From: an uncultured Planctomycetota bacterium
GTDB lineage: Bacteria > Planctomycetota > JAJSAM01 > JAKLKS01
DNA length: 64,000 nt
NCBI GenBank assembly: GCA_964370855.1
Contig: CAYJMF010000001.1
Coordinates: 133,167-197,166, forward strand
Direction: 5' to 3'
Both the position numbers and the translations under genes were made by a program. Positions 2,652 through 36,163 of this stretch are shown piece by piece (position 1 is the stretch's first letter; every line of letters begins with the position of its first letter). The notes beneath the pieces were generated by a model. That model did no database searches and had not been told where the DNA came from. It saw only the letters and a list, made by a program, of their open reading frames with translations.

Positions 2652-2897
2652 GTGAAGACGGTCAGCGTGCGAGACCTCCAGAAGACCCTGCGCAAGCGGG
2701 TCGAGGAGAGCCAGAAGGAGCGCGTGGTCGTGACCCGGCACGGGCACCCGGCCGCGATCCTGATCGGGGTCGAGGGGATGGACTGGGAGCAGGTCCTCCT
2801 CCAGACCGACGCCGCCTTCTGGCGGATGATCCAGGCCCGCCGGAAGGAGAGGGCCGTCCCCCTCGCCAAGGTGAAGAAGCGGCTCGGAATCCGGTAG
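2652..2897 (+). CDS. Phd/YefM-family type II antitoxin (no cognate toxin gene adjacent)
   Basis: GTG 2652 lies in frame inside ORF 2493..2897, with GGAGGAG ending 5 nt upstream. The 81-aa product 'VKTVSVRDLQKTLRKRVEESQKERVVVTRHGHPAAILIGVE..' fits the Phd/YefM N-terminal pattern (..ItrhG.P.AvL..). Confidence 0.75.
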   Translation: MKTVSVRDLQKTLRKRVEESQKERVVVTRHGHPAAILIGVEGMDWEQVLLQTDAAFWRMIQARRKERAVPLAKVKKRLGIR

Positions 2898-2963: not shown

Positions 2964-5900
2964 CTACTCCACGCGCACGACCCCGCCCGCCGGCACCTCG
3001 AACTCCCGAACCACCGTCCAGCCCCGCGGGTCGTTCCACGAGGTGGACACCTTCGGAATGCGGCGGACGAGCCGGACGCGACCCGCGGGCATCCGGGGGA
3101 CGGCGAACTTCCCGTCCGCCCCCGCCGTCACGACGGCGGAGGCCCAGCGCCCCCCCTCCCCCTCCCACACGCAGGCGAAGGGCGCCAGCGAGGCGTCGAC
3201 CGTCCCCTCCACCCGGCCGAGGGGGAGCTCCAACATCCACGGGTTCTCCCCGGGCAGGAGTTCCACCGCGTCGAAGACGCGGAGGATCCCCTCGGGACCG
3301 CCAAGCGCCACCCGCCACGGGCCCGGAGCGGCGGCGGGAATCGAAAAGACCCCGTCGGCGCCGAGGGTGGCTGTCGCCGGGATCGCGGCGTAGGTCGCGT
3401 CGGGAATCGCGTCCACGGGGGAGAGGAGCCCCGCCGTCCAGCCCGCCGCGCCGCCGGGACCCTCCACGGACAGCCGCCCGCGGAGGACCGCCACCCCTTC
3501 CCCCGTCAGGTCGAGATCGCGCGTGACGGTGCGCCCCTCCTCCACGGCGCAGTTCCACCGGAACTCGCTCGTGCCGGGCCCGAAGGCCCCGCCGTCCCGC
3601 GCGGGCACGAGGCGGTCGTACTGCTGGAGGATCCAGGGCCCGGGGAGGAGCCCCTCGAAGCGGTAGCGCCCGTCGGCCCCCACGCGGAGGGACCGCGGTC
3701 GGGCGTCCCCGCGGTGGAGGGCCACGATGACCCCGTCGGGGCTCCGCCCCGCCGGCATCCGGACCTCTCCCGTGAGTGTCCCGCCCCGCCCGAGGGGAAT
3801 CTCGATGCCGGACACGCCGCCGGCGGGATCGAAATCGAAGGGCCCCGCCTCCGCCGGCGCGAAGCCGTCGGCCTCGACGCGGACCACGTATCGACCGGCG
3901 TTCTTCAGCGGCAGGGTGAACGCCCCCTCCGGTCCGGAACGCGCCTCGGCCTTGGGGTCGGGGTACCAGCGGAGGGGGAGCCCGTCCACGGTGGCCTTGG
4001 ACCCCGCTCCCACGACGGACAACGCCGCCACGCGGGCCCCGGGCACAGGGCTCTCCCCGTCGAGAACCCGCCCCTCGAGGGCGGCGACGGGATCGAGAAC
4101 GCACTCCACCGCGTCGGGCCCGGTGAGGGGGTCGAAGGGGCCGAGTTCCCGGTCCGCGAAGCCGGGGGCGCTCACCTCGATCTTGAAGGGGAAGCCCGGC
4201 GCCAGGAACTCCGCGGTGCCCTCATGATGCTCCCCCGGCGGGACGCCGAAGAAGGAGTCAAAGCGGACCGCAGCGGGAGTCAGGTGGGCGCGCCACGAGA
4301 TGACGGGCTCCCCGGTCCGGCTCCTGATCGAAAGTGCCACGCGGCGCGGCGCCGGGAACCTCATCTCGACGTCCCGATCCCCGGGATGGAGAGGCCAGGC
4401 GAGGGATGCTCCCCAGCGCCGATAGGGGTCCTTCACGAGCAAAGTGACCGTTCCCTGGTAGGCGGTGGGTATGCGGAACCGGCCGTCGGGCCCCCTATCC
4501 ACCTTCTGCGTGTTCAACCTGCCGGGTGCCTCGATGTGGGCGGAGAAGTCCAACGGATCCTTCAGGACGGTTCCATCGGGTGCCAGGACTCGCCCCTCCA
4601 CCCAGTCCTCGGGCCGCTCCGTTTCGATGCGAAGGTCCGTCCGCGCCTCCGTCCCGGCGCCGACCTCCACGGGATCGCTGCGCCCCGCGCGGTAGCCCGT
4701 ACGCCCCGCCCAGAGGTGCACCGTGCCCGCGGGCACGCCCTCCAGCAGGAACCCTCCCGTCCCGTCCGTGGCAGCGGGAACCCCGTGCGTGAGAATCTCC
4801 CGCCCGAGGAGGCGCCGCTCCTCGACGGGGCCCTTCGCACGTTCCGTCGCCTCCAGCCCGACCCACGCATCGGCAACCGGGGCGCCCTCCCCGTCGAGGA
4901 CCCGGCCGGCGATGGAGCCACCGGGACCGAGGGGGATGTCGCCGAGGGCCAGTTCCCGCTCCGCCACCACCCTGACGGCGAGGGCCCGGGTCTCCCTCCC
5001 GACGGCGGCCACGACCAGGGTGACGCGGTACTCCGTCTCCGGCCGCTTCCGCCATCCGGCCATGGGCGGCAGGGCGACGGCGAGCCGGCAGACGCCGTCC
5101 GGCCCCGTCCGCGCGCTCCCCTCGCCGTCCCCGGGCAGGATCGAGATCCGGGCACCTTCGATCGCCCTCCCCGTCTCCTCCACCACGCGCCCCGTCACCG
5201 TGAAGGGGATGCTCTCCGCCTTGAAGGAGGGTCCGCGCGGCTCGACGGGGGCGATGGCCGGGGGGGCGAGGGCCCCGGTTGAATCCCCGGGAGTCGGCCC
5301 CTTCCCCCCGGTCCCCTCCCCAAGAGCCGGGTCCGCTGTCCTATGGGGCCGGGGGGAATCCCCCGGCCCCCGCCAGAGGAGCCCCGCCGCGATAAGCACG
5401 CCCCCCGCCCCCCCCCCCGCCTTCGCCGCGGTCCCCATGAGAAGCCCTCCTCCCGTCGCCGCCGCCGCGGCCCCTCCCGCGGTTCCGGCCGCGGTCGGTA
5501 CTCCCTGTTCGCGCGCCAGCGGCAGCACGATCGCCATCCACGCTGCGCGATTCCCGCCGTTCTCCGCGTCGAGCCGCTCCCGAAGGAGTTCGAGGGCCCG
5601 CTTCAGCCGCCAGCGCACCGTCCCCTCCGGCGTTCCCTGGCGCCGCGCGATCTCCACGGAGGACATCCCCTCGTGGAAGCGGAGGAGGACCGTCGATCGA
5701 AACGGCTCCTCCAGGCCGGCGACGAGGGCCGCGAGCCGGCGCGCCGTCTCGAGGCGGGACGCCAGCTCCTCCGGCGACGGAAGCGGGGAGCGCTCCGGCC
5801 GGGCGGCGGCCTCCTCCCTCCGCTCCCTCCGGCCCGACTCGCGGAGGTCACGCCTGCGGAAGTTGCGCAGGACCGTGGCGAGCCAGGGGCGGACCGGTCC

Positions 5901-6056
5901 CCGGTCGTCGGGCGGGTGCTCCAGGGCGGCGAGCCAGGTCTCCTGGACCAGGTCGTCGGCGGCCGCGGAGTCCCGCACGAGGGACGCGGCGAAGGCCCGG
6001 ATCCACCCGGCGTGGGCCAGGAGGTCCTCGATCCGGACGGGAGCGGGCTCGGGCAT
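2964..6056 (-). CDS. ECF sigma factor fused via a hydrophobic segment to a ~800-aa CarboxypepD_reg-like repeat ectodomain
   Basis: ATG 6056. The N-terminal ~165 aa carry sigma-70 region 2 (DDLVQETWLAALEH, RPWLATVLRNF) and region 4 (STVLLRFHEGMSSVEIARRQGTPEGTVRWRLKRALELLRERL). A Gly/Ala-rich hydrophobic stretch follows (GGLLMGTAAKAGGGAGGVLIAAGLLW). The rest is repeated 'GRV(V/L)..G.P..GA.V .. DG.F.I.GL..G' modules. Confidence 0.85.
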   Translation of the reverse strand: MPEPAPVRIEDLLAHAGWIRAFAASLVRDSAAADDLVQETWLAALEHPPDDRGPVRPWLATVLRNFRRRDLRESGRRERREEAAARPERSPLPSPEELASRLETARRLAALVAGLEEPFRSTVLLRFHEGMSSVEIARRQGTPEGTVRWRLKRALELLRERLDAENGGNRAAWMAIVLPLAREQGVPTAAGTAGGAAAAATGGGLLMGTAAKAGGGAGGVLIAAGLLWRGPGDSPRPHRTADPALGEGTGGKGPTPGDSTGALAPPAIAPVEPRGPSFKAESIPFTVTGRVVEETGRAIEGARISILPGDGEGSARTGPDGVCRLAVALPPMAGWRKRPETEYRVTLVVAAVGRETRALAVRVVAERELALGDIPLGPGGSIAGRVLDGEGAPVADAWVGLEATERAKGPVEERRLLGREILTHGVPAATDGTGGFLLEGVPAGTVHLWAGRTGYRAGRSDPVEVGAGTEARTDLRIETERPEDWVEGRVLAPDGTVLKDPLDFSAHIEAPGRLNTQKVDRGPDGRFRIPTAYQGTVTLLVKDPYRRWGASLAWPLHPGDRDVEMRFPAPRRVALSIRSRTGEPVISWRAHLTPAAVRFDSFFGVPPGEHHEGTAEFLAPGFPFKIEVSAPGFADRELGPFDPLTGPDAVECVLDPVAALEGRVLDGESPVPGARVAALSVVGAGSKATVDGLPLRWYPDPKAEARSGPEGAFTLPLKNAGRYVVRVEADGFAPAEAGPFDFDPAGGVSGIEIPLGRGGTLTGEVRMPAGRSPDGVIVALHRGDARPRSLRVGADGRYRFEGLLPGPWILQQYDRLVPARDGGAFGPGTSEFRWNCAVEEGRTVTRDLDLTGEGVAVLRGRLSVEGPGGAAGWTAGLLSPVDAIPDATYAAIPATATLGADGVFSIPAAAPGPWRVALGGPEGILRVFDAVELLPGENPWMLELPLGRVEGTVDASLAPFACVWEGEGGRWASAVVTAGADGKFAVPRMPAGRVRLVRRIPKVSTSWNDPRGWTVVREFEVPAGGVVRVE

Positions 6057-6152
6057 CCTCGAACATCATGCCGCCGGGGGCGGGATCGTTGGCGGCCGCA
6101 TCGGAACGGCCGGGGTGAAGAGGGCGGGCCGCCGTGGTAATCTCGGGGCATC

Positions 6153-6899
6153 GTGGCCACGGCGACCCGACCCCGTCCGGATGCGGCGCGCTTCTCCTCC
6201 ATCGAGGACCCCCGGGAGATTCCCGCCTACGGAATCCCGGAGGCGGCCCTCTACCTGCGGATCCCCCGCGCCACGCTCCGGTCCTGGGTGTTCGGACGCC
6301 CCTACCGCGTGAAGTCCGGGGCGGCCCGGTTCGAACCTCTCATCCGGCCCGCCTCGGAGGACGGGGTGCGGCTCCTGTCGTTCATGAACCTCGTCGAGGC
6401 CCACGTCCTGTCCGCCATGCGCCAGGAGTTCGGAGTGGACCTCGCCGCCGTTCGACGGGCCCTCGATTTCCTCGAGAAGAGGAGGCCGTCGAAGCATCCC
6501 CTTGCCGACAGGTCCTTCGAGACGGACGGGCAGGACCTGTTCATCCGCGAGCTCGGACAGCTCGTGGCCGCCTCCGACGACGGCCAAAGGGGGATGCGCG
6601 AGGTCCTCGACGCGCACCTGAAGAGAATCGTCCGCGACGAGCGGGGCGCGGCCCTGCGCCTGTTCCTGTTCACGCGGGGCGGGGTCCACGCGCCCGACGC
6701 CCCGCGGGTGGTGCTCGTGGACCCGGGGGTCTCCTTCGGCCGCCCGGTACTGGCGGGGACGGGCATCCCGACCGCCGTGATCGCGGAGAGGTTCAAGGCG
6801 GGGGAGGCCATCGCCGACCTGGCCGCCGACTACGACCGGAGCCCCGGGGACATCGAGGAGGCCCTCCGGTGTGAGCAGTCCTTCCAGCGGGCCGCCTGA
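6153..6899 (+). CDS. HTH + DUF433 domain protein (antitoxin-like)
   Basis: The N-terminal part has an excisionase/MerR-like HTH (IPEAALYLRIPRATLRSWV). The C-terminal 'GRPVLAGTGIPTAVIAERFKAGEAIADLAADYDRSPGDIEEAL' matches the DUF433 pattern. Confidence 0.75.
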   Translation: MATATRPRPDAARFSSIEDPREIPAYGIPEAALYLRIPRATLRSWVFGRPYRVKSGAARFEPLIRPASEDGVRLLSFMNLVEAHVLSAMRQEFGVDLAAVRRALDFLEKRRPSKHPLADRSFETDGQDLFIRELGQLVAASDDGQRGMREVLDAHLKRIVRDERGAALRLFLFTRGGVHAPDAPRVVLVDPGVSFGRPVLAGTGIPTAVIAERFKAGEAIADLAADYDRSPGDIEEALRCEQSFQRAA

Positions 6900-7290
6900 C
6901 GAACCGGTCTTCTGCATCGACGAGGCCCTCGGGAAGAGGGTCGTTCCCGACGCCCTCCGCACGGCGGGGGTGCGCGTGGAACTCCTCATCGATCACCACC
7001 CGCGGGGGACGGCCGATGCCCTGTGGCTCCCCGATATCGGCCGCCGCGGGTGGGTGGTCCTGACGAAGGACAAGAACATGAAGCGCCGCCCCGCGGAGCA
7101 GCTCGCGGTGGTGAGGAACGGCGTCCGCGCCTTCTCCCTCACGACGGGCGACCTGACGGGACCGGAGATGGCGGACGCGTTCCTCCGCGCGATGCCGTCG
7201 ATCCGGAGGCTCCTCCGGCGCCACCCCGGCCCCTTCATCGCCTCGGTGACGCGAGCCGGACGCGTGGAGATCGTCTACCCGGCGGTATGA
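6871..7290 (+). CDS. PIN-like / DUF5615 (Mut7-C-like) domain protein, putative toxin partner of DUF433
   Basis: GTG 6871 overlaps the upstream gene by 29 nt. 'VFCIDEALGKRVVPDALRTAGVRVELL.. ADALWLPDIGRRGWVVLTKDKNM' fits the DUF5615 pattern (..DE.L..l...L...G..v.... D..i...a...g.vlvTkDkdf). Confidence 0.65.
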   Translation: MSSPSSGPPDEPVFCIDEALGKRVVPDALRTAGVRVELLIDHHPRGTADALWLPDIGRRGWVVLTKDKNMKRRPAEQLAVVRNGVRAFSLTTGDLTGPEMADAFLRAMPSIRRLLRRHPGPFIASVTRAGRVEIVYPAV

Positions 7291-9472: not shown

Positions 9473-9613
9473 TTCGCGGCCTCCCCGTGGACCCGCTTCG
9501 GTGAACAGGCATCATCGTAGTGCCGGGCGGCGCGGAGGCGACGGCGCATCTCCATGGATTCGCGAACTCGCCTCCCCCTTCCCCTCCCCCCGCCCGTGAG
9601 GGACAATCCCACC

Positions 9614-12600
9614 ATGACCGGACGCGGCGCCCTCCTTGGCGGCGGACTGCTCGCCCTCGCGATCCTCGGGGGCGTCGTCCTGTACCTCGACGGGAAGACG
9701 GAACCCCCGGTGCCGGGTCCCGCCGCACCCGGGGCGCCCCACGCCCCCGCTCCGGCCTCGCCCTCCCCCGCCGCACCCCCGCCCGACGCCCCCGCGGCGC
9801 CGCCCCTCGAGGGGGGCCCCGGCGCCGTCGTCGGACGCCTCGTGCGCGGTTCCCCGCCCACCCCCGTCCCCGGCCGCGTGACCGTCGCCGGCCCCGGCGG
9901 CGCCGCGGCCGCCGCTACGGTGGACGCCACCGGCCTCTTCCGCCTCGCCGGCCTCCCCGCCGGGACGCCGCTCGCCTTCGAGGCGACGTCACCGGGCCTC
10001 CTCCCCCACCGCCTCCCCTGGGTGCGCCTCGCCGCGGGGGATCCCCTCGACCTCGGCGACCTCGCGCTCGGCGCCGGCACCGCCGTCGCGGTGGAGGTCG
10101 CCGACGGCCGCGGGCGGCCCATCTCCGGCGCCTCCGTCACCCTGCGACGGTGGCCGGCGGGGGCTTTCCTGGGCTCGGTCCCCTCCGAGTACCCCGAGGA
10201 CTCCGCCGTCCCGCCCTCCCTCCGGGCCTCCACCGGTGCGGAGGGTAGGGTCGTCCTCGAGGGGACCCCGCCGGGCCCGTGGAGGGTCGAGGTCGCCGCC
10301 GCGGGGTTCGCGCCGCGGGAGGAGTCCTTCACCGTCGTGGAGGGGCGGGCCGCCGCGCCCCTCCGCTTCCTCCTCCTCCCGGCCCTGGCCCTCGCCGGGA
10401 GAGTATCAATCTTTGATACACCTGCGGAGGGGGCGGTGGTCGAGGCCGTGGAGCGGAACTTCATGCGCCGGGTCCGCTCGCGGCCCGCGGACGCCGACGG
10501 CGGCTACCTCCTCGAGGGGCTCGACGCCGGGCGGTGGACCCTCTCCGTGTGGCCGACGCCGGACACGGAGGTCTGCGTCGGCGGCCTCGACCTCCCGGGC
10601 CTCGATCGGTTCGACATCCGCCTCCCCGCGGGCGGGCGTGTCCTCGGCACCGTGCTCGACGACGCCACCGGGGCTCCGGTCCCCGGCGCCCTCGTCACCC
10701 TCCGCACCGACGGGGCGGGCTTCCTCGATGACTCCGCGGCGACGCGGACCGACCCCGACGGGCGGTTCTCCCTCGACCACCTCCCACCCGACGTTCCGAA
10801 CATCACCGGGTTCTCCGTCACCGCCACCGGGTTCCTCGACTTCCCCGACGGGCGGTCGGAGCCCGTCGTCCCGGAGGCGGCCCTGTTTCCGGGAACCGCT
10901 GATGGGATCGTGGTCCGCCTCCGCCGCGGCGCCGCGGTGGTCGGGAGGGTGCTGGATCCCGAGGGGCGGCCGGTTCCCGGGGCCCGGGTCTCCCTCTTTT
11001 CATCGATTGGCGGAGGGGAGAGTGGTTTCTCCACCCCCGCCCTTGCCGACGTGGAGGGAAGGTGGCGGCTGGAGCCGGTGGAGCCGGGGACGGGGATCCT
11101 GCTCGTGGCAGCGCCGGGCTTCTGCCAGGAGGAGTTCCCCGCCGATCCTGCCGCGGCGCTGTCCACGGGGACGGCCCCGGCCTCCTGGACCGTGGAGGTG
11201 CCGGCCTCCGGGGAGGCGCGGAAGGACCTCGTCCTCTCCCGCGGGGGCGCCATCGAGGGAACGGTCGTGGACGCCGACGGGGCGCCGATGGCGGGCGCGG
11301 CGATCTCCTGCCACCCGGAGGGGAGATGGGACGAACTCGGGACCGCCGGCCCCTCCGACGGGGAGGGGCGGTTTCGCGTCGCGGGGGTCCCCTCCGGTCG
11401 TGCCCTGGAGGTGTCGGCGTCCCTGCCCGACCGCCCCGACGGCCGGTCCGAGCCCCTCACCCTCGGCCCCGGGGAGACGAAGCGCGATCTCCGGATCGTC
11501 CTTCCCGCACCGGCAGCCCTCGCCGGGATCCTCCGGCGGGAGGACGGCACCCCGCTCCGGGCGCCGCGCCTCAGGATCGTGGACGGGGAGCCCGAGGACG
11601 GTGCCCTCGATCCGATGATCCTGGGGATGGCCGCGTACCGCCCCGTGGCCCCCGACGGGAGTTTCCGCGTCGAGGGCCTGGACGCCGGCACCTGGACGCT
11701 GGCGGCGGAGGACGAGGGGTGCGCCCTCGCCGTCGGCCCCGTGGTGGTCCTCGGCGAGGGGGAGCGGCGGGAGGAACTCGAGGCGATCCTCCCCGCGGGG
11801 ATGTCCATCGCCGGCCGCGTCGTGGACGGGAAGGGGGCGCCGCTTCCCGGGGCGGTCGTTCTCGTCGCGAGGGTGTTCGAGAAGTACTCCACCGCGAGCG
11901 TCCTCTCGGACCTCCACGCGCCGGCGGCCTCGGCGATCACGGGCGAGGACGGCGCCTTCCGGAAGGAGGGGCTCCCTCCCGGGCCCCATTCCGTCACGGT
12001 GCGCGCGGACGGCACGCGGGAGCGTTCGGTGGAGACCCCGGCCGGGACTGCCGACCTCCTCATCGTCATGGAGAGCGGATTCTCCGTCGCGGGGAGGGTC
12101 GTGGACGCCGAGGACGGCCGCCCCGTGGCCGGGGTCCGGGTGACGGCCCGGCCCCGGGGACCCCGCGGTTTCAGCGAGGCGCGGGAGACGGTGAGCGGCG
12201 GGAACGGGGAGTTCCTCCTCGACGGGCTTCCCGAGGGCGGCGTGGACCTCCGGTTCGACCCGGAGTCGGGGGGGAAGGTCGGGGGGTACGGGGCGAAGAC
12301 GGTGCGGGGCGTGGCGGCGGGCACTTCCGGGCTCGAGGTGGCGCTCCCGCGGGGTCTCGCAATCGCGGGGAGGGTCGTGGACGAGGAGGGGAGGGCGATC
12401 GCCTCCGCCCTCGTGATCCACGCCGTCGGGAGGGGCGACGACGGCGAGATCCTGTTCGCCACCGTCACCCGGGAAGGGAGCGTCGACGGGTCCTTCCTCG
12501 TCGGGGGCCTCTTGCCGGGCACGTACTCCCTCACCGTATCGAGTTCTCCCGACTACCTGTCGGCGACCGAGCGCGGCCTGCGGTCAGGGACCGAGGGCGT

Positions 12601-13159
12601 CGTCGTCGTCCTGCGCCGGACGGGCCGGATCTCCGGCCGGGTCGTCGACGGGGACGGACTGCCGGTCGGAAGCGGTGTCCCCGTGGCGGCCGACTTCCGG
12701 GGTGCGGGGAAGGAAGTCGCAGGGGCCCATGGGCGCACGGAGACCGGGGCGGACGGCTCCTTCTCCATCGGGATGCTCGGCCCCTACCGGTTCCGGCTGA
12801 CGGCGGGGGGGGGGAACCGGTGCGACTTCCTTCCCTCGGCGCATCCCGGGGACGTGGCCGTCGGCACCACCGACGTGGAGATCCGCGCTGCCCGTGGCGC
12901 CTCCCTCTCGGGGATGCTCCGCGATGCCGCGGGCGCCGCGGTGAGGGGAGTGGCTGTGCGGGCCCGGACCGGGGAGTTCGTCGAGGCCTGGCTCGTCTCG
13001 GACTGGCAGGAGGTGGACGACGACGGCGCCTTCCACCTCCGCGGACTTCCGCCCGGCACGGTGACCCTGGAGGTCCGGGCCGGGGACGGGGAGACGATCC
13101 CTCTCGGTGAGTGGACCGCCCCGGGGGAGAACCTCCGGGTGGTGATTCCGGAGCGGTAG
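9614..13159 (+). CDS. Membrane-anchored CarboxypepD_reg-like repeat protein (paralog family)
   Basis: ATG 9614 (MTGRGALLGGGLLALAILGGVVLYL = TM helix); an alternative ATG is at 9554. A Pro/Ala linker is followed by more than 10 modules 'GRVVD..G.P..GA.V...TD..G.F.L..L..G.Y'. Confidence 0.8.
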   Translation: MTGRGALLGGGLLALAILGGVVLYLDGKTEPPVPGPAAPGAPHAPAPASPSPAAPPPDAPAAPPLEGGPGAVVGRLVRGSPPTPVPGRVTVAGPGGAAAAATVDATGLFRLAGLPAGTPLAFEATSPGLLPHRLPWVRLAAGDPLDLGDLALGAGTAVAVEVADGRGRPISGASVTLRRWPAGAFLGSVPSEYPEDSAVPPSLRASTGAEGRVVLEGTPPGPWRVEVAAAGFAPREESFTVVEGRAAAPLRFLLLPALALAGRVSIFDTPAEGAVVEAVERNFMRRVRSRPADADGGYLLEGLDAGRWTLSVWPTPDTEVCVGGLDLPGLDRFDIRLPAGGRVLGTVLDDATGAPVPGALVTLRTDGAGFLDDSAATRTDPDGRFSLDHLPPDVPNITGFSVTATGFLDFPDGRSEPVVPEAALFPGTADGIVVRLRRGAAVVGRVLDPEGRPVPGARVSLFSSIGGGESGFSTPALADVEGRWRLEPVEPGTGILLVAAPGFCQEEFPADPAAALSTGTAPASWTVEVPASGEARKDLVLSRGGAIEGTVVDADGAPMAGAAISCHPEGRWDELGTAGPSDGEGRFRVAGVPSGRALEVSASLPDRPDGRSEPLTLGPGETKRDLRIVLPAPAALAGILRREDGTPLRAPRLRIVDGEPEDGALDPMILGMAAYRPVAPDGSFRVEGLDAGTWTLAAEDEGCALAVGPVVVLGEGERREELEAILPAGMSIAGRVVDGKGAPLPGAVVLVARVFEKYSTASVLSDLHAPAASAITGEDGAFRKEGLPPGPHSVTVRADGTRERSVETPAGTADLLIVMESGFSVAGRVVDAEDGRPVAGVRVTARPRGPRGFSEARETVSGGNGEFLLDGLPEGGVDLRFDPESGGKVGGYGAKTVRGVAAGTSGLEVALPRGLAIAGRVVDEEGRAIASALVIHAVGRGDDGEILFATVTREGSVDGSFLVGGLLPGTYSLTVSSSPDYLSATERGLRSGTEGVVVVLRRTGRISGRVVDGDGLPVGSGVPVAADFRGAGKEVAGAHGRTETGADGSFSIGMLGPYRFRLTAGGGNRCDFLPSAHPGDVAVGTTDVEIRAARGASLSGMLRDAAGAAVRGVAVRARTGEFVEAWLVSDWQEVDDDGAFHLRGLPPGTVTLEVRAGDGETIPLGEWTAPGENLRVVIPER
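10403..10419. repeat. GTATC-N7-GATAC palindrome, copy b (inside a CDS)
   Basis: GTATC aatcttt GATAC, encoded as codons gta tca atc ttt gat aca (V284-S-I-F-D-T289 of ORF 9554..13159). It is a conspicuous AT-rich island inside GC-rich coding sequence. Confidence 0.6.
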
Positions 13160-13198: not shown

Positions 13199-14155
13199 CT
13201 ACTTCCCCTCCCCGCGGGCCCACTCCGGGATCTCCGTCTCCCGCCTCCAGGACTTCTCCGACCACTCCCGGAAGCGGCGCTCGGCGGAGGCCGCCTGGAG
13301 GGCCTCGACCCCGGCCTTCTCCACGACGCCCCGGATGGTGACGCTCCCCCCCTTCCCCCCGCTAAGCCCGAGGAAGCCACGGGGGTACGTCCGGTCCTTC
13401 GCCGACACCAGGAGACGGCCGTCCACCGCGATGGAGAGCGCGCCGCCCTTGAGCGCGAACCGGACCTTGTGGGTCCCCTCCCCCGCGGGGTTGTCGCAGC
13501 TTCCGAGGATGATCGCCCTCTTCCTGGCCCCTCCCGCCGACTCGAGCCGCGCGATGCCCGCCTGCTCCTTCGACTTCCCGTTGGTGTGGCCCGCCCGCAG
13601 GTCGTACCCCTTGTCGGTGTCGAAGTCGAAGGAGAGCTGGACCGCGAGCCGGTCGAGGAGGCTCCCCTCGTAGTCCACGGTCACGTCCTCGAACGGGATC
13701 CGGAGGAACCCGTTCTCCGGGGGATGTCCCTCCCAGGCCGGGGCGGCGGGCCCGTCGGGGAACTCGAGGACGAGCACACGGGTCGCGGCCGCGAAGGACT
13801 TCGTCCCCGGCCCGAAGATCTGCTCCGGCGTGGGCGGCTTCTCCTGGAGGCGCCAGACGCAGAGCTTCAGCGCCTCCTCGATGGCGGGGAGGCGGCGCAC
13901 GACCTCCGGGGAGTCCTTGAAGTCCACGAACACCGCGCGCAGTGCGGCGAGCGCCGGCTTCCACTTCCCCTCCTCCACGAGCCGGTCCGCGGCGGCGAGG
14001 CGATCGTCCAGGGAGGGAGCGGGCTTCGCGGGAGCGGGGGGCGGGGTCGCCGGCCCCTCGGCGGGGGCAGGGGAGGCGAGGAGGAGGGGAAGGAGCAGGA
14101 CGGCGGCGGGGAATCGCCCCCTCGTCGCGAAGCCCCCGGGGCGAAGCACTTGCAT
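13199..14155 (-). CDS. Secreted hypothetical protein, C-terminal LamG/DUF1080-like jelly-roll (tentative)
   Basis: This is the inner part of ORF 13199..14323(-), starting at ATG 14155 (MQVLRPGGFATRGRFPAAVLLLPLLLASPAPAEG = signal peptide). The C-terminal 'HKVRFALKGGALSIAVDGRLLV.. PRGFLGLSGGKGGSVTIRGV' resembles lectin-like jelly-rolls. Confidence 0.65.
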   Translation of the reverse strand: MQVLRPGGFATRGRFPAAVLLLPLLLASPAPAEGPATPPPAPAKPAPSLDDRLAAADRLVEEGKWKPALAALRAVFVDFKDSPEVVRRLPAIEEALKLCVWRLQEKPPTPEQIFGPGTKSFAAATRVLVLEFPDGPAAPAWEGHPPENGFLRIPFEDVTVDYEGSLLDRLAVQLSFDFDTDKGYDLRAGHTNGKSKEQAGIARLESAGGARKRAIILGSCDNPAGEGTHKVRFALKGGALSIAVDGRLLVSAKDRTYPRGFLGLSGGKGGSVTIRGVVEKAGVEALQAASAERRFREWSEKSWRRETEIPEWARGEGK

Positions 14156-14321
14156 GGGGATCGAAGATACTCCCTCGAAGCCGGGTCCGCGGCCGGCCCT
14201 CTCCCCGGGGATTCCCCCCTCCGGACCGCACATGGGGTGGATCCCCCATGGACCTCCCGCCCCGCAGGGTCCAGAATGGCGCCGACCCACGGCCGGGGGA
14301 TCCTCCCCGGGGAGGAGGCGC

Positions 14322-17300
14322 ATGCGCGGTCGGGACCTCGTCGCTCCCCTCGTCGCGGCGGCCCTCCTCGCCGGCGGGACGGGACGGGCCGCGGAGGAGG
14401 AAACCTCCCCCGGCCCCGTCGGCGTCGTCCGCGTCGTGGACGAGCACGGCGCCCCCGTCCCCGGCGCGCGGGTCGCCCTCGTCGCCTCCGGTCCCGCTTC
14501 CCCCCTCGGCCCGGTCCCCCTCCCGGGCCCCGTCGGGGAGGGATGGGCGGCCCTCCTCGAGCCGACCTACGGCGCGCGCCGGGTGGAGCTGGATCCTCCC
14601 GTCACGACCGACGCCGGGGGGCGGGCGGTGCTCCGAAGCCCTCCGCCGGATCCGCGGCGCAGCCCGCTCCCCGGATGCCCCGTCTGGGCCTCCGCCCCGG
14701 GCCGCGCGCCGGCCTTCGGCAACCCGGAAGGCGGGGAGACCCTCATCGAGATCGACCGCCCCGCGGACTTCGCCGGGAGGCTCCTCGACGGAAGCGGTGC
14801 CCCCGTCGCCGGCGCCCGCATCCTCGCCCCGTACCGGTACGCGTGGGACGAGGGGCCGCCCGCGGCCCTCGTGCCGCTCTCCGCGACCACCGACGCCGAG
14901 GGGCGGTTCCGGATCGCCGGCATGCAGCGCGGAGAGGTGGACCTCCGGGCGATCCTCCCCTCGGGCGTCGCCTTCGAGATGCTGCGGGGCGAGGCGCCCG
15001 CGCCCGAGGGGTGGGAGCTCCGCCTCGGGGGGACGGGAGCGCTCCGCCTCCGCTTCGTGGACGACGCCACGGGGGAGCCCCTCGCCGGCGTCCGGTTCGG
15101 GCTCCACGTGGACCACCCCGGCGGGTTCGGGCTCTCCCTCGCCAGCGCCGTCGGCGCCTCGGCGGAGGACGGCACGGCCGTCGTCTCCCCCCTCCCCCCG
15201 GGGATGGTGTCGTGGGTCGGTGCGGAGCGGGAGGGGTACCGGCCTCCGGAGGGGCTCCAGGAGGCGAGCGGGGCCGTGGGCGCGGAGATCCTCGCCGGGA
15301 GGGAGGCCTCCCTCGTGCTCCGGTTGAAGCCGGGCACCCCCCTCCGCGGCCGCGTCATCGCCGGGGACGGCGGTCCCGTCCCCGGGGCCCTCGTCGAAGT
15401 CGCGCGGTGGCCCCGGGTGCGGGCCGGGCGGGGGGACGAGGGGGAATCCTGGTTCATGACCCTCACCGGGGCGGACGGGGCCTACCTCTTCCCGGGCCTG
15501 CCCGAGGGGACCTTCGCGCTCTCCGTCACGGCCCCGGGATTCCATCAAGCCGGCGCAGCGTCCGCGCCCTCCCGGGAGGAGGCGCCTCCCGGCGCCGTCG
15601 TGGAGATCCGGGGGCGCGCGCCGATGACGCTGGATCTCGCGGTCCTCCGCCTCGGATCCGTCGAGGGGATCGTGGTGGACGCGGCGGGACGTCCCGTGGC
15701 CGACGCGGCGGTGAGGATCCAGGGCGGCCCCGCCGCAGACGGGGATTCCCCCTTCGCCCGCTCCGATGCGGCCGGAGCTTTCCGCATCGAGGGCGTGCCT
15801 CCCGCCCCCGCGTGGACCGCGACCGCGGTCCGGCGGACCGGGGCCACGCGCCCCGTCCCGCGCTCCGCCCCCTTCGAGGTGAAGGAGGGGGAGACGGCCT
15901 CCGGCATCCGGGTCGTCCTCCCCGCGGGCTCCACCCTCGCCGGCGTGCTCCGGCGGGCGGACGGAGGGCACGTCGGAGGGCTCCGCCTTTTCCTCGCCTC
16001 GGGCATCCAGGCCGGGGGCGGCGGTCCCCCCTCCGCCGGGGCGGGCCGCGTGCGCGGGGCCGGAGTGGGCCGGGAGGATGCCCCGAAGCCGGATCCGATC
16101 TTCCCCCGTCCCTGGGAGGGCCTCGGCCTCCCCGGACCGTTCCCCGTGGCCGCCGACGGGAACTTCCGCATCGAGGGCCTCGGCGCCTCCACCTTCACCC
16201 TCGTCGTGGACACCGGCAGCCCCTGGTGGATCCGGGGACCGGCCGTCGCGCTGAAGGAGGGGGAGGGGAGGGAGGACCTCGCCATCGAACTCCCTCCGCT
16301 CCGCGAGGTCTCCCTCCGCGTCACCGACGCCGCGGGGGCGCCGCTTCCGGGGGCGCAGGTCGCCCTGTTCCGGGGCGTGAAGCGGGAGTGGAACACGGCG
16401 GAGGCCCATCTCAGGTCCGACGGAGAGGGTCTATGCCGCCAGGGAGGGCTTCCTCCCGGGACCTACTCCGTCGAGGCGACCTCCCCCGGGTTCCTCCCGG
16501 CCGGCAGGGTCCTCGCGGAATCCGCGGAGGAGGCGACCCTCGTCCTCGCCCGCGGGCGATCCGTCGATGGCATCGTCGTCGATGCCGGGACCGGCGCCCC
16601 CCTCGTCGGCATCCAGGTCGTCCTCCGGCTCCCCGACGGGGTCCCCCGGCCCGCGGGCGGCGATCGCACGGAGACGGGGCCCGACGGGCGCTTCGCCTTC
16701 CGCGGCCTCGGCGAGGGCGGCTTCGATCTCCTCTTCGAGGAGTGGGCGGGGGGCCACGCGGCGCGGCTCCTTCGGGAGGTCGCGCCGGGCACGGCGGACC
16801 TCCGGGTGGAGCTCGCGGCGGGGCTCTCCATCGGCGGCGAGATCCTCGGCCCCGACGGGAAGCCGTTCCACGGGGAGCCTCCCCCCGTCGCCTTCGCCCT
16901 CCCCGTCGGGGAGGGAGCGGAGGCACGCGAGGGCGCGGAGCGCCAGGCGGAGTGGAAGGGGGGCTTCGCGATCCCCGGCCTCGCCCCGGGGGAGTACGAG
17001 GTGGGCTTCCGCCCCGCGGTGCAGGGCGACTTCTGGTGCCCGGAGCGGGTCCGGGTCGCGGCGGGGGCGGGCGGGGTCGTCCTCCGTGCGGCGCTCCTCC
17101 CGCGCATCGGGGGACGGGTCGCCGGCCCCGGCGGGCGTGGAGTCTCCCCGGGGCCGAGGGGCGCGCTCGAGGTCGTCCCCTCCGACGGATCCCGGGAGCC
17201 GACGGAGGTCATGTTCCCGAGCCACTTCACGGCGACGGTGCGGGAGGACGGGAGTTTCGAGACCTCGACCCTGGATCCCGGGAGGCGGTACGACCTGCGC

Positions 17301-17957
17301 GCGCGCGGGTTCCCGGGCTTCGAGGACGGCGCGCTTGCGGGAGTCGCCCCGGGGACCTTGGACGTCTCCCTCGTCCTCGCGGAGAGGGTGGTGCGGTCCA
17401 TCTCCGGGCAGGTCCTCGACACCCTGGGCCAGCCCGTCCCCGCGGGCCGCCGCGTCCAGGCGACGGCGGTGAGCGAGGTCCCGGGCGCCCCCTCCCCGTC
17501 GGGCGAGGGGACCGGGGGAAGGACCATCACCGACGCGGAGGGGCGGTTCGTCATCGCGGGACTCGCGGATCACCTGTTCCACGTCCAGGCCACGAGCAGC
17601 CACGACGGGGACGATTTCCGCCGCCTGAAGACGGAATCCACGGCCCGGGTCCGGGCGGGAACGGAGGGGGTCGTCCTCCGGCTCTTCCGCTTCGCCCGCG
17701 TCACCGGCCGCCTCGTGGACGGGCAGGGTAGGCCCGTCGCGAAGACCGACATCTTCGCGGTCCCCGCGGACCGGGAAATGAGGAACTTCCACGGCGGCGC
17801 GAAGACGGCGGAGGACGGCACGTTCCTCCTGCGGGTCGCGCCGGGCCCGTTCCGGCTCGGGACGAAGTTCGAGGGGAAGAACCTCCTCGTCGGCGAGTTC
17901 GAGGCTCCCGCCGCGGACCTGGTCGTCTCCACGAAGGACCTCGGGCCGTGGAAGTGA
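14322..17957 (+). CDS. Secreted CarboxypepD_reg-like repeat protein (paralog family)
   Basis: ATG 14322 is preceded by GGAGGAGG. Signal peptide MRGRDLVAPLVAAALLAGGTGRA. Tandem 'G.V.D..G.PV.GA.V' modules fill the protein. It ends '..VGEFEAPAADLVVSTKDLGPWK'. Confidence 0.8.
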   Translation: MRGRDLVAPLVAAALLAGGTGRAAEEETSPGPVGVVRVVDEHGAPVPGARVALVASGPASPLGPVPLPGPVGEGWAALLEPTYGARRVELDPPVTTDAGGRAVLRSPPPDPRRSPLPGCPVWASAPGRAPAFGNPEGGETLIEIDRPADFAGRLLDGSGAPVAGARILAPYRYAWDEGPPAALVPLSATTDAEGRFRIAGMQRGEVDLRAILPSGVAFEMLRGEAPAPEGWELRLGGTGALRLRFVDDATGEPLAGVRFGLHVDHPGGFGLSLASAVGASAEDGTAVVSPLPPGMVSWVGAEREGYRPPEGLQEASGAVGAEILAGREASLVLRLKPGTPLRGRVIAGDGGPVPGALVEVARWPRVRAGRGDEGESWFMTLTGADGAYLFPGLPEGTFALSVTAPGFHQAGAASAPSREEAPPGAVVEIRGRAPMTLDLAVLRLGSVEGIVVDAAGRPVADAAVRIQGGPAADGDSPFARSDAAGAFRIEGVPPAPAWTATAVRRTGATRPVPRSAPFEVKEGETASGIRVVLPAGSTLAGVLRRADGGHVGGLRLFLASGIQAGGGGPPSAGAGRVRGAGVGREDAPKPDPIFPRPWEGLGLPGPFPVAADGNFRIEGLGASTFTLVVDTGSPWWIRGPAVALKEGEGREDLAIELPPLREVSLRVTDAAGAPLPGAQVALFRGVKREWNTAEAHLRSDGEGLCRQGGLPPGTYSVEATSPGFLPAGRVLAESAEEATLVLARGRSVDGIVVDAGTGAPLVGIQVVLRLPDGVPRPAGGDRTETGPDGRFAFRGLGEGGFDLLFEEWAGGHAARLLREVAPGTADLRVELAAGLSIGGEILGPDGKPFHGEPPPVAFALPVGEGAEAREGAERQAEWKGGFAIPGLAPGEYEVGFRPAVQGDFWCPERVRVAAGAGGVVLRAALLPRIGGRVAGPGGRGVSPGPRGALEVVPSDGSREPTEVMFPSHFTATVREDGSFETSTLDPGRRYDLRARGFPGFEDGALAGVAPGTLDVSLVLAERVVRSISGQVLDTLGQPVPAGRRVQATAVSEVPGAPSPSGEGTGGRTITDAEGRFVIAGLADHLFHVQATSSHDGDDFRRLKTESTARVRAGTEGVVLRLFRFARVTGRLVDGQGRPVAKTDIFAVPADREMRNFHGGAKTAEDGTFLLRVAPGPFRLGTKFEGKNLLVGEFEAPAADLVVSTKDLGPWK

Positions 17958-18116: not shown

Positions 18117-21100
18117 TCACCTCGACCTGAGGACGACCCGCAGATCGCTGGACGGCACATCGAAGGTGCCGAGTTCCGTGGAATCCCGGCCCCCGCCGGT
18201 ACTGAGTTCCACCTTGCCCCGCGCGAGCCCCTTCACCAGGAAGGTGCCGTCCCCCGCAGTCTCCGTGAAGCCGTAGTTGCGCGGTCGATCTCCCTGGACC
18301 GCCATGAGGCGGACCGACCGCAGGGGCCTCCCCTCCCCGTCCACGAGGACGCCGGAGATCGTGAAGCAGGGATCCAGGACGATCTCGACGTCGGAGTCCC
18401 CGGGCCTGCACGTGCCCGCGGCCGCCTTCGGGGCGAAGTCCGACCCGTCGCCGCCGGCGACGACCTGGAATTCGGTCCCGACGAGGCCGGTGATCCGGAA
18501 GCCGCCGTCCTTCCCGGACTTCGCCTCCGACGATTCCGGACTCCCCTTCGCCCGCGCCTCGACGGGGACCCCCTCCGGGGCCGGCCGCCCGTCGGCGAGG
18601 AGGAGCCGTCCGGAGATCGCCGCCCCCCGGGAGACCAGGATGACGAGGTCCCTGGTCCCCGGCGCGACCCCCCTCGCGTGGCCCGGGGTCGTGCCGGCGA
18701 AGTTGTCCGCCTCGAGGTCGTAGGTCCGGCCGGGAGGAAGCGCCGAGGTGGCGAAGACCCCGCTCCTCCCGTCCACGAGGCAGAACTCGCGCTTGAAGGA
18801 CCCGGTCTCCTGCCCCTCCGAGCAGGTGACCACCACCGACCCGGAGTCCCCCGGCGGGTTCCCGGATTCGTCAAGGACCCGCCCCGAGATGGTGAGCCCT
18901 TGCTCGATGCGGATCACCAGGCCGCTCGTCCCCGCCTCCACGGAGGGGATCTCGACGGCGACGTAGGGACTGGCCGTGCCCATGCCGGGAAGGGGGAGAC
19001 GGCCCTCCGGACCGACCTTCACCACGTACCTGCCGGCGGGAAGTCCCCGCACCTCGAAGGTCCCGTCCTCCTCCGTCCGCGCCTCCACTTCCTTCCCGTA
19101 CACGCGGTCCCCCTCCTCGTCCAGGGGATTGACGGAAACCTCGAATCGTCCGCGGACGGGTCCCCCGTCCGCGAACACGACCCGGCCGGCGATCCGGAGC
19201 CCCTGCTCCAGGACGAGGCGGAGGTCCTCCGTTCCCGCCTTGACCCCGCGAACCACCAGAGGGGAGTGCTGCTCCTGGCCCGCCCCTCTGTCCACGGAAA
19301 CGGAGTAGACGCCCTCCGCCAGGCCGTCCGCGGAGAACCGCCCCTCGGCGTCGGTCCGCGCCTTCGCCAGCGGCACTTCACCGCGAAGGCGGGCAAGGGC
19401 ACCCTCCCCCGCGGGATCGGCCACGATGACGACGATGCCGGGCATCGCCCGTCCCGTGGCTCCGTCCACGACGCGGCCGGCGATGCGGAGACCCGGGACC
19501 AGGGAGATGACCATGTCCATCGTTCCGGTCCTCACGGTCCTCACCGCCTCGGACCATCCGGCGCACCGGACGATGATCCCGACGCTGCCCTCCGCAAGGT
19601 CCCGCAGGGCGAAGCGCCCGTCGGGGCCGGTCACCTGCCGCACCACATCGTCCTCCCCGAGGCAGGGCGGGTTCCCCGCGAGGAGGATCGACGCCCCCGC
19701 CACGGGAGCCCCTCCCGCCTCGACCACCGTTCCGGAGAGCCGGCGGCCGGGGCCGAGGAGGATCTCCAGCCCGTGGACATCGCTCCCCTCCTCCACCCTG
19801 AGGCCCGGGAGGACGGCCGGAGCGCATCCCCCGGCGAAGGCCACGATTCCGTACTCTCCGGGTTCGACCTGCTCGAACCGGAAGGAGCCGTCCCGGTCCG
19901 GCACGCAGGTCCTGTCGAACAGGGAGCCCGTCGGGCCCCGCGCTCCCGTCCCCGCGGACAGGGCCCCCTTGGCGAGGAGGAGACGGGGATCGAGGAGAGG
20001 CGTCCCCTCCCGGCTCCGCAGGATCCCGGAGACCGCGTGGACCGGTCGGACCTCCACGGAGATCCCCGTCGCGGTCCCGCCGGGGGCGAGGTCGAAGCGA
20101 GCCGAGTCCCCCCGCGCGCCGGGGCCCCGGGCCCTGACCACGAGGGAAGCCCCCGCTGGGACCCCCTCGATCCGGAAACGACCCTCTTCGTCCGTGGGGG
20201 AGCCCTGCACCAAGAGGGATTCCCCGGACCTGCCCGCGATCTCGACCAGGAGCCCCTTCGCGGGACCTCCGGCATCGTCCCGTACGACCCCTTCCACGAC
20301 GCCCCCCGGGGAGAGGACGAAGTCCCCACGCGCCTCCTCCCCCTCGGCCACCTCCACCGGGGAGGTGGCGGAGACTCCCTTCGGAATCAGGAAGTTCCTG
20401 GCGCCTCGCGGGGCGGATTCGGTGTCCGTGAATCCCGGTGCGAGGACGGCGAGCGTGCCCTTCCCCGGCACGCAGTGCTCGAGGTGGTAGGCGCCGTCCG
20501 CTTCCGCCCGGGTGGACCGGCTGGCATGGAACGCCAGGAAGGACGGACCTCCCGGAACCAATTCGGGTTGATGGAGCACGAGGGCGCCGGCCAGCGGCCG
20601 CCCCTCGGCGTCCTTCACCGTCCCCCGGACGGCCCCCCCCCGGACGAGGCGCACCTCGCGCTCGACGACGTCACCGGGCATCAGGAACCTGTGCTCCTCC
20701 TTGCCGGGGAATTCGGCGGGAACGAAGCCCGCGCCGCGGATGAGGACGGACAGGTGGTAGGTCCAGTGGAGCTCGGCCAGAGTGAACCGTCCGTCGGATC
20801 CCGAAACGGCGGTCGCCGTCGTCGACTCCGGACGCCCGCCCCACCCGCTCGCGCGGGCGCGCACCCGCGCGCCGGCGACGGGGGCGCCTCCCCGGTCCTC
20901 CACCACGCTCCCCCGCAGGGTGATCCCGGGCTCGAGGGTGATGTCGATGCGTGCGACGTCCGGGATCAGGACCCTCGCCGCGGTCGTGACGGACCTCGAT
21001 TGGAGGCGGACGGAGACGTCGTGGGCTCCCTCGCCGATCCCGTCCAGGCGGAAAATCCCGTCGGGTCCGGTGATCGTCCCCGTCCAGCCGCGGAATCCCG

Positions 21101-21938: not shown

Positions 21939-22091
21939 GGTTGCCCTCCGACGGCCATGCTAGCAGGGGCGCCCGCGCCGGATCCCCGCCGTTGCCCGTC
22001 CCGGCCCGCATGGTCACGGGGGACAACGAGCCGATCCCCCTCCCTCTTCCCCACCGGGGTACGATGCGCCGGGGAGAGCGGAGGAGAAGCC

Positions 22092-28672: not shown

Positions 28673-28723
28673 CGGAATCCCGGCGTGGAGCCGCGCCCGC
28701 CCCCGGTGTACCCTCCTCCTCGC

Positions 28724-36101: not shown

Positions 36102-36163
36102 GCACAGAGAGTTACAGGAAGGAAGGGTCCGCGTTGCACGGGATCCCCGGATTCCCGGCGCGC

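Follow-up and report, generated by a model that had tools for sequence, protein, structure and literature searches.

How can an extracytoplasmic function (ECF) sigma factor be controlled when a membrane anchor and a large outside domain are fused to it? Much bacterial signal transduction runs through ECF sigma factors, a major route of this kind, and nearly all understood cases use an anti-sigma factor. The question is raised by a 64,000-nucleotide (nt) stretch of DNA from an uncultured Planctomycetota bacterium (GenBank assembly GCA_964370855.1, contig CAYJMF010000001.1, positions 133,167 to 197,166; hereafter the window), which encodes gene A, a predicted membrane-tethered ECF sigma factor with a CarboxypepD_reg ectodomain. 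We present here the reading frame, domains, and relatives of gene A, together with its predicted promoter and a predicted internal translation start. Taken as a whole, these are best explained by a self-contained "one-component" tethered sigma factor that would be released by signal-triggered proteolysis, a reading that we favor with modest confidence.

Reading frame and domain architecture

A first-pass annotation of the window had claimed a 1030-amino-acid (aa) gene at 2964-6056, and an open reading frame (ORF) was found at exactly those coordinates on the minus strand. It begins at ATG 6054-6056, the first start codon past the in-frame TGA at 6066-6068, and ends with TAG 2964-2966. The window has a GC content of 74%, and long spurious ORFs are frequent there; in-frame GC content at third codon positions (GC3) is 0.78 to 1.00 over the entire length of gene A, the Gly/Ala linker included.

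By its sequence, the N-terminus (aa 1-165) is a complete ECF sigma factor (sigma2-sigma4). The annotation's region 2 and region 4 strings, DDLVQETWLAALEH and STVLLRF...LRERL, lie at aa 34-47 and 121-162, respectively, and Pfam places Sigma70_r4_2 at aa 106-158 (E 2.1e-07). Gene A passes TIGR02937, the NCBIfam model of the ECF superfamily (69.2 bits versus a cutoff of 42.9), and none of the narrower NCBIfam subfamilies, the planctomycete-specific ones included; scores were below the cutoff for TIGR02989 (Sig-70_gvs1, 59.5 versus 124.55 bits) and TIGR02984 (plancto1, 41.1 versus 183.75 bits). Only sigma2 and sigma4 are present, with no sigma1.1 or sigma3, as in ECF (group 4) sigma-70 proteins. 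Matches of the sigma part in the PDB are ECFs throughout, in RNA polymerase (RNAP) holoenzymes, the best being Mycobacterium tuberculosis SigL (6dv9_F, E 3.5e-14), to which Foldseek likewise matches it. Because of these matches, and because the sigma2 and sigma4 motifs are conserved among orthologs (TVRWRL in region 4 is invariant or nearly so), the sigma factor is predicted to be functional.

Between sigma4, which ends near aa 165, and the transmembrane helix, which starts at aa 213, there are only ~47 residues and therefore no space for a canonical anti-sigma domain. The segment directly after sigma4 is as conserved as the sigma domains (0.62), with R170 and W173 conserved in at least 90% of sequences. 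The tether that follows varies in sequence and length (about 20-30 aa; family median, ~29 aa), and a conserved G-x-L-x-M-x4-K motif directly precedes the transmembrane helix. No anti-sigma Pfam family matched gene A at E ≤ 1. A profile of the linker searched against the PDB gave a best E value of 1.2, to unrelated enzymes, and no match of the post-sigma4 segment to any solved anti-sigma element. The neighbors of three orthologs on long contigs are unrelated to each other and include no anti-sigma gene, and no conserved receptor, partner, or protease gene was found beside these three orthologs. Because it has neither an anti-sigma domain nor an anti-sigma gene next door, gene A appears to be a self-contained, one-component sigma factor.

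In the ectodomain, CarboxypepD_reg (PF13620) scored 124.9 bits against a gathering threshold of 32.3 (E 1.6e-36), with four significant stretches. An AlphaFold2 (AF2) model on the family alignment (mean predicted local distance difference test score [pLDDT], 84.5) is confident for sigma2, sigma4, and the helix after sigma4, is of low confidence at aa 184-278 (tether, transmembrane helix, and Pro/Gly stalk), and is all-beta at aa 283-1030, with pLDDT mostly above 85. The ~800 aa of repeats in the first-pass annotation thus fold as ~8 beta-sandwich modules; module count and boundaries are our reading of the DSSP strand pattern. Foldseek against the PDB matched the ectodomain to generic beta-sandwich arrays only (pilins, adhesins, and macroglobulin MG domains; TM-scores ≤ 0.11 relative to the query), with no enzyme fold among the matches. 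Pfam gave no WD40 or PQQ match in the extension and no SnoaL, TPR, or receiver domain in gene A. Module 6 has 19 of 92 columns at least 90% conserved, against 1-9 columns in every other module, a conservation comparable to that of the sigma domains, and its consensus reads GGAIEGRV..G..P.G.IV...RGDG..RT.RVG.DG.FRFE.L.PG.W.V...C.V..G.TT..DLDL. It also holds a near-fixed R-G-D(G) tripeptide and the only conserved Cys (C836). On this conservation pattern, module 6 is the strongest candidate site for a ligand or partner.

The Gly/Ala-rich hydrophobic segment of the annotation was located at aa 183-228, and the proposal that it spans the membrane was borne out across the family. At ~aa 205-235, the hydropathy score KD19 reaches at least 1.6, roughly the usual transmembrane threshold, in 100 of 107 orthologs (median 2.08), and there is no second comparable hydrophobic segment elsewhere in the orthologs. 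The net charge of the flanks (N side, +0.76; C side, -0.71) agrees with the positive-inside rule, in 70 sequences versus 13 with the opposite asymmetry. The helix averages 3.8 G/P/S/T and 4.8 Ala per 19 aa. In unfused paralogs, an N-terminal anchor precedes the same arrays. Judged by hydropathy, charge bias, and these paralogs, gene A very probably has this architecture and a single-pass, N-in/C-out topology. ECF sigma factors with C-terminal extensions form the second most common regulatory type, with 19 groups (PMC7826278), and gene A has a weak Pfam match to PhyR_sigma2 (E 0.065), so a cytoplasmic extension modulating the sigma factor by contact, as in ECF41 and ECF42, or a PhyR-like decoy sigma domain was considered. 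Both are very improbable given the conserved transmembrane helix with its charge asymmetry, the anchored paralogs, the lack of SnoaL, TPR, or receiver domains, and a conserved cognate promoter (see below), which argues for a working sigma factor.

The fusion could instead be an artifact, in which an adjacent sigma gene and anchored repeat gene were joined through a missing stop or frameshift in a G-rich patch. Every public assembly breaks or is scaffolded at 5361-5383, and an ENA contig (L001, 143 kb) that matches the window's first 13 kb at 99.3-99.8% identity is annotated with two products, of 275 and 824 aa, in place of gene A. L001 has 271 additional bases exactly within the stretch that encodes the hydrophobic segment. 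These consist of a 10-N scaffold gap edged by poly-G/poly-C junk, and the coding segment ...AAVLLIAAGLLWRG... is duplicated, with one copy on each side; the flanks overlap in frame, and collapsing the gap restores a single 1030-aa frame. Four sediment-metagenome assemblies (Logan contigs) have no indel across 5100-5800, and all four contigs end at 5361-5383. No missing stop or frameshift between the sigma and repeat parts was thus found in five other assemblies. Moreover, a single stop-free frame runs across a tether of variable length in over 100 orthologs and in dozens of loci from reference genomes, and there is no stand-alone sigma factor among the nearest relatives. The frame of gene A through the patch is not in doubt, and we regard the artifact as highly improbable.

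Single bases in the patch are another matter. Five differ from the window both in L001 and in three of the four metagenome runs (X1-X3): 5394 A>C, 5399 C>G, 5401 C>A, 5404 C>G, and 5413 C>A. Read on the coding strand, four of the five bases peculiar to the window are G. As read in the window, the hydrophobic core is AGGGAGGVLIAAGLLW, with a KD19 of 1.26; the alternative reading leaves the ORF length unchanged and gives the core AGVGAAVLLIAAGLLW, with a KD19 of 1.84 and a KD16 of 2.19. The window bases at these positions are probably erroneous, judging from the other assemblies and a patch that is poly-G prone and hard to sequence. Gene callers and assemblers mishandle this patch, and family members can therefore appear split or truncated in metagenome-assembled genomes (MAGs), as in the ENA contig.

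A search with the whole protein returned 751 homologs, more than 100 of them full length (~1000-1080 aa) with sigma r2, r4, and CarboxypepD_reg. Labeled homologs are nearly all from Planctomycetota and bear names no more specific than "sigma-70 family RNA polymerase sigma factor." An alignment of 62 sequences is conserved over its full length (mean column identity, 35%). With the frame also kept across the variable tether, this agrees with the earlier claim that the fusion is a functional, selected architecture rather than an accident. When 1.84 billion cluster representatives were searched with just the sigma domain (aa 1-185), 2,804 matched at E ≤ 1e-30. Among the 150 best matches, ~142 exceed 250 aa in length (most are 800-1100 aa), and nearly all matches extend through the post-sigma4 helix; almost all are long, tethered proteins from Planctomycetota and Myxococcota, with no anti-sigma domain or conserved neighbor among them. 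Short matches were rejected as stand-alone sigma factors: some break off within sigma4 or the linker, others already include the juxtamembrane motif and transmembrane helix, and all are fragments.

In reference genomes, 284 stretches encode a relative, from Planctomycetota MAGs, the cultured Saltatorellus ferox Poly30, and Myxococcota (including Minicystis rosea and Kofleriaceae). In the 80 loci that were kept, nearly every complete gene consists of a sigma factor, a transmembrane helix at ~aa 190-230, and a 470-1190-aa extension. A Pfam scan of 45 more distant members found CarboxypepD_reg in 39 and a PDZ domain in 4. In some members, for example L038:4911-7490 of Minicystis rosea, PDZ follows the CarboxypepD_reg array, and an unfused protein of the window (57315-60425, plus strand) likewise has a PDZ_2 domain at its C-terminus in addition to CarboxypepD_reg. 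In the envelope-stress pathways of DegS and RseP, PDZ domains act as sensors of C-terminal peptides.

Table 1. Features of gene A and its upstream region, in window coordinates
Feature	Coordinates	Strand	Basis or remark
Predicted -35 element CCAAC	6088..6092	-	Clade-specific ECF-type promoter
Predicted -10 element CGGCA	6069..6073	-	12 nt before ATG
Full-length coding sequence, membrane-tethered ECF sigma factor with CarboxypepD_reg ectodomain (gene A), 1030 aa	2964..6056	-	
Sigma-70 region 2, aa 14-76	5829..6017	-	Pfam PF04542 Sigma70_r2, E 3.4e-12
Sigma-70 region 4, aa 106-160	5577..5741	-	Pfam PF08281 and PF04545
Conserved post-sigma4 segment G-D-R-x-A-W-x-x-A-L-x-P-L-A, aa 166-182	5511..5561	-	AF2 helix 170-181
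Ala/Gly/Thr low-complexity tether, aa 183-202	5451..5510	-	Conservation 0.29; AF2 pLDDT < 50
Internal Shine-Dalgarno-like element GGAGGAGGG, within coding sequence	5445..5453	-	
In-frame internal ATG (M207)	5436..5438	-	Predicted start of sigma-less 824-aa isoform (MGTAAK, transmembrane helix, ectodomain)
Single transmembrane helix, aa 213-228	5373..5420	-	Hydropathy; conserved in orthologs
Pro/Gly-rich disordered extracytoplasmic stalk, aa 229-282	5211..5372	-	AF2 pLDDT < 50; conservation 0.25
Ectodomain of ~8 transthyretin/CarboxypepD_reg-like beta-sandwich modules, aa 283-1030	2967..5210	-	Pfam PF13620, AF2
Sixth beta-sandwich module, aa 759-850	3507..3782	-	Most conserved ectodomain part

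Predicted promoter and internal start

Unbiased dyad counting in the 250 nt upstream of 65 family genes, with coding sequences as controls, singled out CCAAC...GGCGGCA. The aligned motif, CCAAC-N14-CGGCA(A/T)G, occurs in Planctomycetota as well as Myxococcota, at 35-41 nt ahead of the start codon, and is present in ~25 of 64 related loci. A strict regular expression gave 16 matches in 1.36 Mb (both strands), 11 of which fall in the 96-nt upstream zone, versus ~0.07 expected. With a weight matrix at ≥14 bits, 23 of 26 matches precede family sigma genes, loci outside the training set included, and one further match (L065:8272) precedes a truncated tandem remnant of a family gene. That remnant (L065:8272-8400, from a Kofleriaceae MAG) has a 30.6-bit promoter match directly after a sigma-fusion gene, followed by a short ORF that begins like the family N-terminus (...EQLLPDAAWLNRLA...) and then degenerates. 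The only good match in the window is at 6065-6092 (minus strand), ahead of gene A. A looser match at 25158-25185 (plus strand) lies inside coding sequence (...PNAISVAGMI...) and was dismissed as chance.

From its AAC-containing -35 element, its spacing, and its gene-specific location, the motif is quite likely an ECF-type promoter, through which genes of the gene A family would be autoregulated. Since the distance from promoter to ATG is fixed across the family, ATG 6056 is taken as the true start, and since the -10 element ends so close to it, a near-leaderless mRNA is implied. The full-length starts of gene A and of the other sigma fusion in the window (copy B) have no properly spaced Shine-Dalgarno sequence.

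Such a sequence is found inside the gene. In gene A, the internal site is GGGAGGAGGgcttctcATG at 5436-5453, and in copy B it is GGGAGGActcctcATG at 35412-35428 (minus strand), a GGGAGGA-N6-ATG just before the transmembrane helix. The Met of the G-x-L-x-M-x4-K motif, M207 in gene A, is ~80-89% conserved in orthologs, and M-x4-K followed by a transmembrane helix resembles the N-termini of unfused paralogs, such as the protein at 36164-39862, which begins with MARVPK and a transmembrane helix. For the Gly four codons before M207, 24 of 30 family genes use GGA, which yields GGAG-N8-ATG. Across 72 family genes, GGA accounts for 14.5% of all Gly codons (binomial P = 1.9e-15); in the same 30 genes, it accounts for 13.9% of the Gly codons that precede a G-starting codon (Fisher odds ratio 25, P = 2.7e-15). 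The third positions that flank it are saturated (0.27-0.57), and the median GC3 of the genes is 0.87. A Shine-Dalgarno-like element stands before the conserved Met in 25 of 31 genes, versus 16% for other internal Met codons. Together with an in-frame ATG, GTG, or TTG, such an element shows a 7-fold enrichment over the 20 codons ahead of the transmembrane helix (37 of 72 genes; Fisher P 1.7e-20). Ordinary genes of the window, unfused paralogs included, have GGAGG 9-13 nt before the ATG.

On these codon statistics, M207 is probably a functional start that would give a sigma-less, anchored isoform. Alternatively, gene A has a single product, and the GGAG-N8-ATG is the fossil ribosome-binding site of a captured gene, a pause element, or the trace of a protein-level constraint. 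That G-x-L-x-M-x4-K could be a structural juxtamembrane motif and that the site is missing in about half of the wider clade both speak for a single product. Each of its forms nevertheless meets a difficulty. Protein-level constraint cannot account for a synonymous choice, and the third position of the Gly codon is A in 80% of genes despite the high GC3 and the saturated flanking positions; with the constraint on a synonymous site, no protein-level explanation is possible. A neutral fossil would be lost at such divergence, a translational pause there would fall before synthesis of the transmembrane helix, and genuine genes of the genome use the same GGAGG spacing. We consider a single product possible but doubtful. 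The literature searched held nothing specific on internal initiation in sigma or anti-sigma genes. The 824-aa product annotated on the ENA contig (P0001) was rejected as the M207-start protein, as it starts at a TTG in poly-G junk that follows the scaffold gap; the equal length is coincidental.

Proposed release or tethered action

In the proposed mechanism, membrane tethering would keep the sigma factor from RNAP and DNA, possibly helped by the post-sigma4 helix. The ectodomain would sense a signal, with module 6 as the best candidate site, leading to cleavage in the stalk or ectodomain and next to intramembrane cleavage in the Gly/Ala-rich transmembrane helix. The freed sigma factor would then activate its own promoter, in positive feedback, and a regulon. 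The stalk is a candidate site-1 cleavage region. Two membrane-bound sigma fusions offer precedents: IutY is activated by Prc and then RseP cleavage, and processing has been proposed to activate SCO4117 (PMC8999054). Proteolytic release itself, argued by analogy with these proteins, may well apply to gene A; we would put it at somewhat short of probable. A Peptidase_M48 gene of the window (HtpX/Ste24-type membrane metalloprotease, 28685-30214, plus strand) adjoins neither sigma fusion. It was rejected as the releasing protease, being unlinked to gene A and not of the site-2 (M50) type.

The main rival is that the sigma factor acts while tethered, in the style of ToxR and CadC: the ~30-aa tether would permit binding of RNAP and promoter at the membrane, with no release at any time, and ectodomain signals would alter activity through oligomerization or conformation. 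With no anti-sigma domain, tethering may be the sole control; a flexible low-complexity tether is kept in all members despite its unconserved sequence, and no protease is linked to the gene. Against this stand the absence of any precedent, in the literature searched, for a sigma factor working while membrane bound, the activation of the characterized fusions IutY and SCO4117 by processing (PMC8999054), and the Gly/Ala-rich transmembrane helix and disordered Pro/Gly stalk, which are typical of substrates of regulated intramembrane proteolysis. We judge tethered action to be unlikely.

Several observations weigh against a self-contained sigma factor with its own promoter, nested start, and proteolytic release. 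IutY and SCO4117, the precedents for proteolysis, both have an anti-sigma domain, which the gene A family lacks, and no site-1 or site-2 protease candidate is linked to gene A. No regulon member besides the gene itself was seen within ±5 kb of ~70 loci, and the promoter motif is detectable in only ~40% of loci. The internal Shine-Dalgarno element and start are missing from about half of the wider clade, mostly its myxobacterial members, so the internal start is not essential to the architecture. The window's own transmembrane sequence scores below the usual KD19 threshold, and the corrected bases rest on contig ends in the poly-G patch, from contigs rather than raw reads.

If the internal start is active, release of the one-component sigma factor could be coupled to its own sigma-less product. 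A near-leaderless, autoregulated mRNA translated from its 5′ ATG would yield the tethered sigma-ectodomain fusion, and Shine-Dalgarno-led initiation at M207 on the same mRNA would yield a sigma-less anchored ectodomain, with the architecture of the unfused paralogs, which are abundant. The copy with the sigma factor would assemble together with those lacking it, or meet the same fate as they do. When the envelope structure is damaged or turned over, the sigma factor would be freed and the gene reinduced, a homeostatic loop without an anti-sigma factor, in which the sigma-bearing form may report on the state or fate of its own sigma-less product. This loop may also include the conserved helix after sigma4, as a minimal new in-cis inhibitory element. 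That a sigma-bearing fusion and a sigma-less product are nested in one gene, with the sigma factor monitoring its own product, is a tentative proposal.

Origin, surroundings, and known systems

Copy B lies within the ORF 32202-36479 (minus strand), with its true start most likely at ATG 36099-36101; there are no sigma domains in the window beyond those of A and B. The first-pass annotation had called gene A a clearly different, independent copy of the other fusion. On alignment, the sigma domains of A and B are 40% identical, and the ectodomains are generically related (25-39% over local stretches), so that two diverged copies are indeed present; the idea of two separate fusion events fared less well. 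A, B, and the relatives of B share G-G-L-L-M-x-K followed by the transmembrane helix, outside the sigma fold, and also GGAG-N8-ATG at the DNA level. Because this juxtamembrane signature and DNA feature are shared outside the sigma fold, the comparison favors a single ancestral tethered module, whose ectodomain would have diverged later, over two fusions. Large and diverse extensions of planctomycetal ECFs have been explained by duplicated sigma modules landing beside or inside other genes (PMC7671368), and the fossil-like M-x4-K start before the transmembrane helix fits a sigma module landing in front of another gene. A relative of copy B on a 1.67-Mb contig (P0256) has a 413-aa product that is Arg-rich after the transmembrane helix and looks out of frame, which suggests a frameshift or pseudogene in its genome.

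A third fusion of sigma factor and CarboxypepD_reg (868 aa; Sigma70_r2 and r4_2) lies just past the low-coordinate end of the window, in the same genome (L001:12937-13146). A paralog expansion dominates the window: besides gene A, it holds at least nine large CarboxypepD_reg-repeat proteins (700-1400 aa), at 9554-13159 (plus strand), 13830-17957 (plus), 18117-21938 (minus), ~22000-24626 (plus), 32202-36101 (minus, copy B), 36164-39862 (minus), 46185-48281 (plus), 48335-51856 (minus), and 57315-60425 (plus). At least four of the sigma-less paralogs begin with a short N-terminal membrane anchor. As the annotation stated, gene A is monocistronic, flanked by a convergent PhdYeFM (Phd-type) antitoxin gene downstream (~2652-2897, plus strand) and by the divergent HTH-DUF433 gene upstream (6153-6899, plus strand). 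Toxin-antitoxin-like modules in the window are the DUF433 and PIN_10 pair adjoining gene A (6153-7290, plus strand), the PhdYeFM antitoxin gene (2652-2897, plus strand), and an AbiEii and DUF6088 pair (54680-56302, minus strand).

The clade numbers at least 2,800 clusters at 50% identity in which a sigma factor is joined straight to an anchor and a large outside domain. It lets one ask whether tethering alone silences a sigma factor or whether the sigma factor works tethered, and the predicted cognate promoter is a ready reporter. Relatives in the cultured Saltatorellus ferox Poly30 and Minicystis rosea DSM 24000 make the family experimentally accessible. If active, the internal start would be an unusual instance in which one ORF encodes both a regulator and, nested within it, the likely effector. 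The literature searched describes no fusion of an ECF with a CarboxypepD_reg ectodomain, no CCAAC-N14-CGGCA promoter, and no internal start in such genes. Upstream of copy B, this promoter of the gene A clade is absent.

The closest known design is IutY of Pseudomonas putida (ECF243), likewise a self-contained polypeptide with an N-terminal ECF sigma factor, one transmembrane helix, and a periplasmic C-terminal domain. In IutY, a FecR-type anti-sigma module stands between the sigma factor and the transmembrane helix, and signaling runs via a TonB-dependent receptor (PMC8999054), whereas gene A lacks an anti-sigma domain as well as any conserved receptor or partner nearby and has a CarboxypepD_reg array where IutY has its FecR periplasmic domain. 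SCO4117 of Streptomyces coelicolor (ECF52) and groups ECF48 and ECF53 also have a membrane-spanning C-terminal extension after the ECF sigma factor, which in SCO4117 ends in an extracytoplasmic Pro-rich region and a binding domain (PMC8999054). These groups are actinobacterial, and their extensions include an anti-sigma domain of the zinc-finger (ZAS-like) type. Gene A lacks such a domain, has an ectodomain of ~750 aa made up of beta-sandwich repeats, and belongs to a clade present in Planctomycetota and Myxococcota. Of the hallmarks of sigma/anti-sigma hybrids, gene A thus has the transmembrane helix and extracytoplasmic C-terminal domain and lacks a FecR N-terminal or ZAS domain. ECF41 and ECF42 carry SnoaL-like or TPR domains directly after sigma4 and have no transmembrane helix, and gene A, with its conserved transmembrane helix, differs from them.

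ECF57 (ECF01-Gob; Pinto et al. 2020, PMC7671368) comes from the same phylum, with several copies per genome and long, diverse C-terminal extensions. It is described with WD40-like repeats and with a pair of conserved Cys that join sigma2 to sigma4 (PMC8999054), whereas gene A has no WD40 match and its first Cys is at aa 323. The papers examined describe no CarboxypepD_reg ectodomain, family promoter, or internal start. The gene A family may already lie within a numbered ECF group; ECF220 (Proteobacteria, C-terminal extension, Sorangium exemplar) is a lead, as myxobacterial relatives exist.

RpoE-RseA and SigW-RsiW likewise couple an extracytoplasmic signal to sigma release by site-1/site-2 proteolysis and have an autoregulated ECF promoter. 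Their sigma factors are separate, soluble proteins held by an anti-sigma domain, whereas that of gene A is covalently part of a membrane protein with no recognizable inhibitory domain. ToxR and CadC share with gene A a cytoplasmic DNA-binding N-terminus, a single transmembrane helix, and a periplasmic sensor, with no partner kinase; they are winged-helix activators that work tethered, and the tethered module of gene A is an RNAP subunit. The general class of membrane-spanning ECF fusions is known, and the bare fusion is no surprise to a specialist. Gene A stands out for its lack of an inhibitory domain, for the size of its clade, for a predicted promoter that would be autoregulatory and near-leaderless, and most of all for a nested start with strong statistical support.

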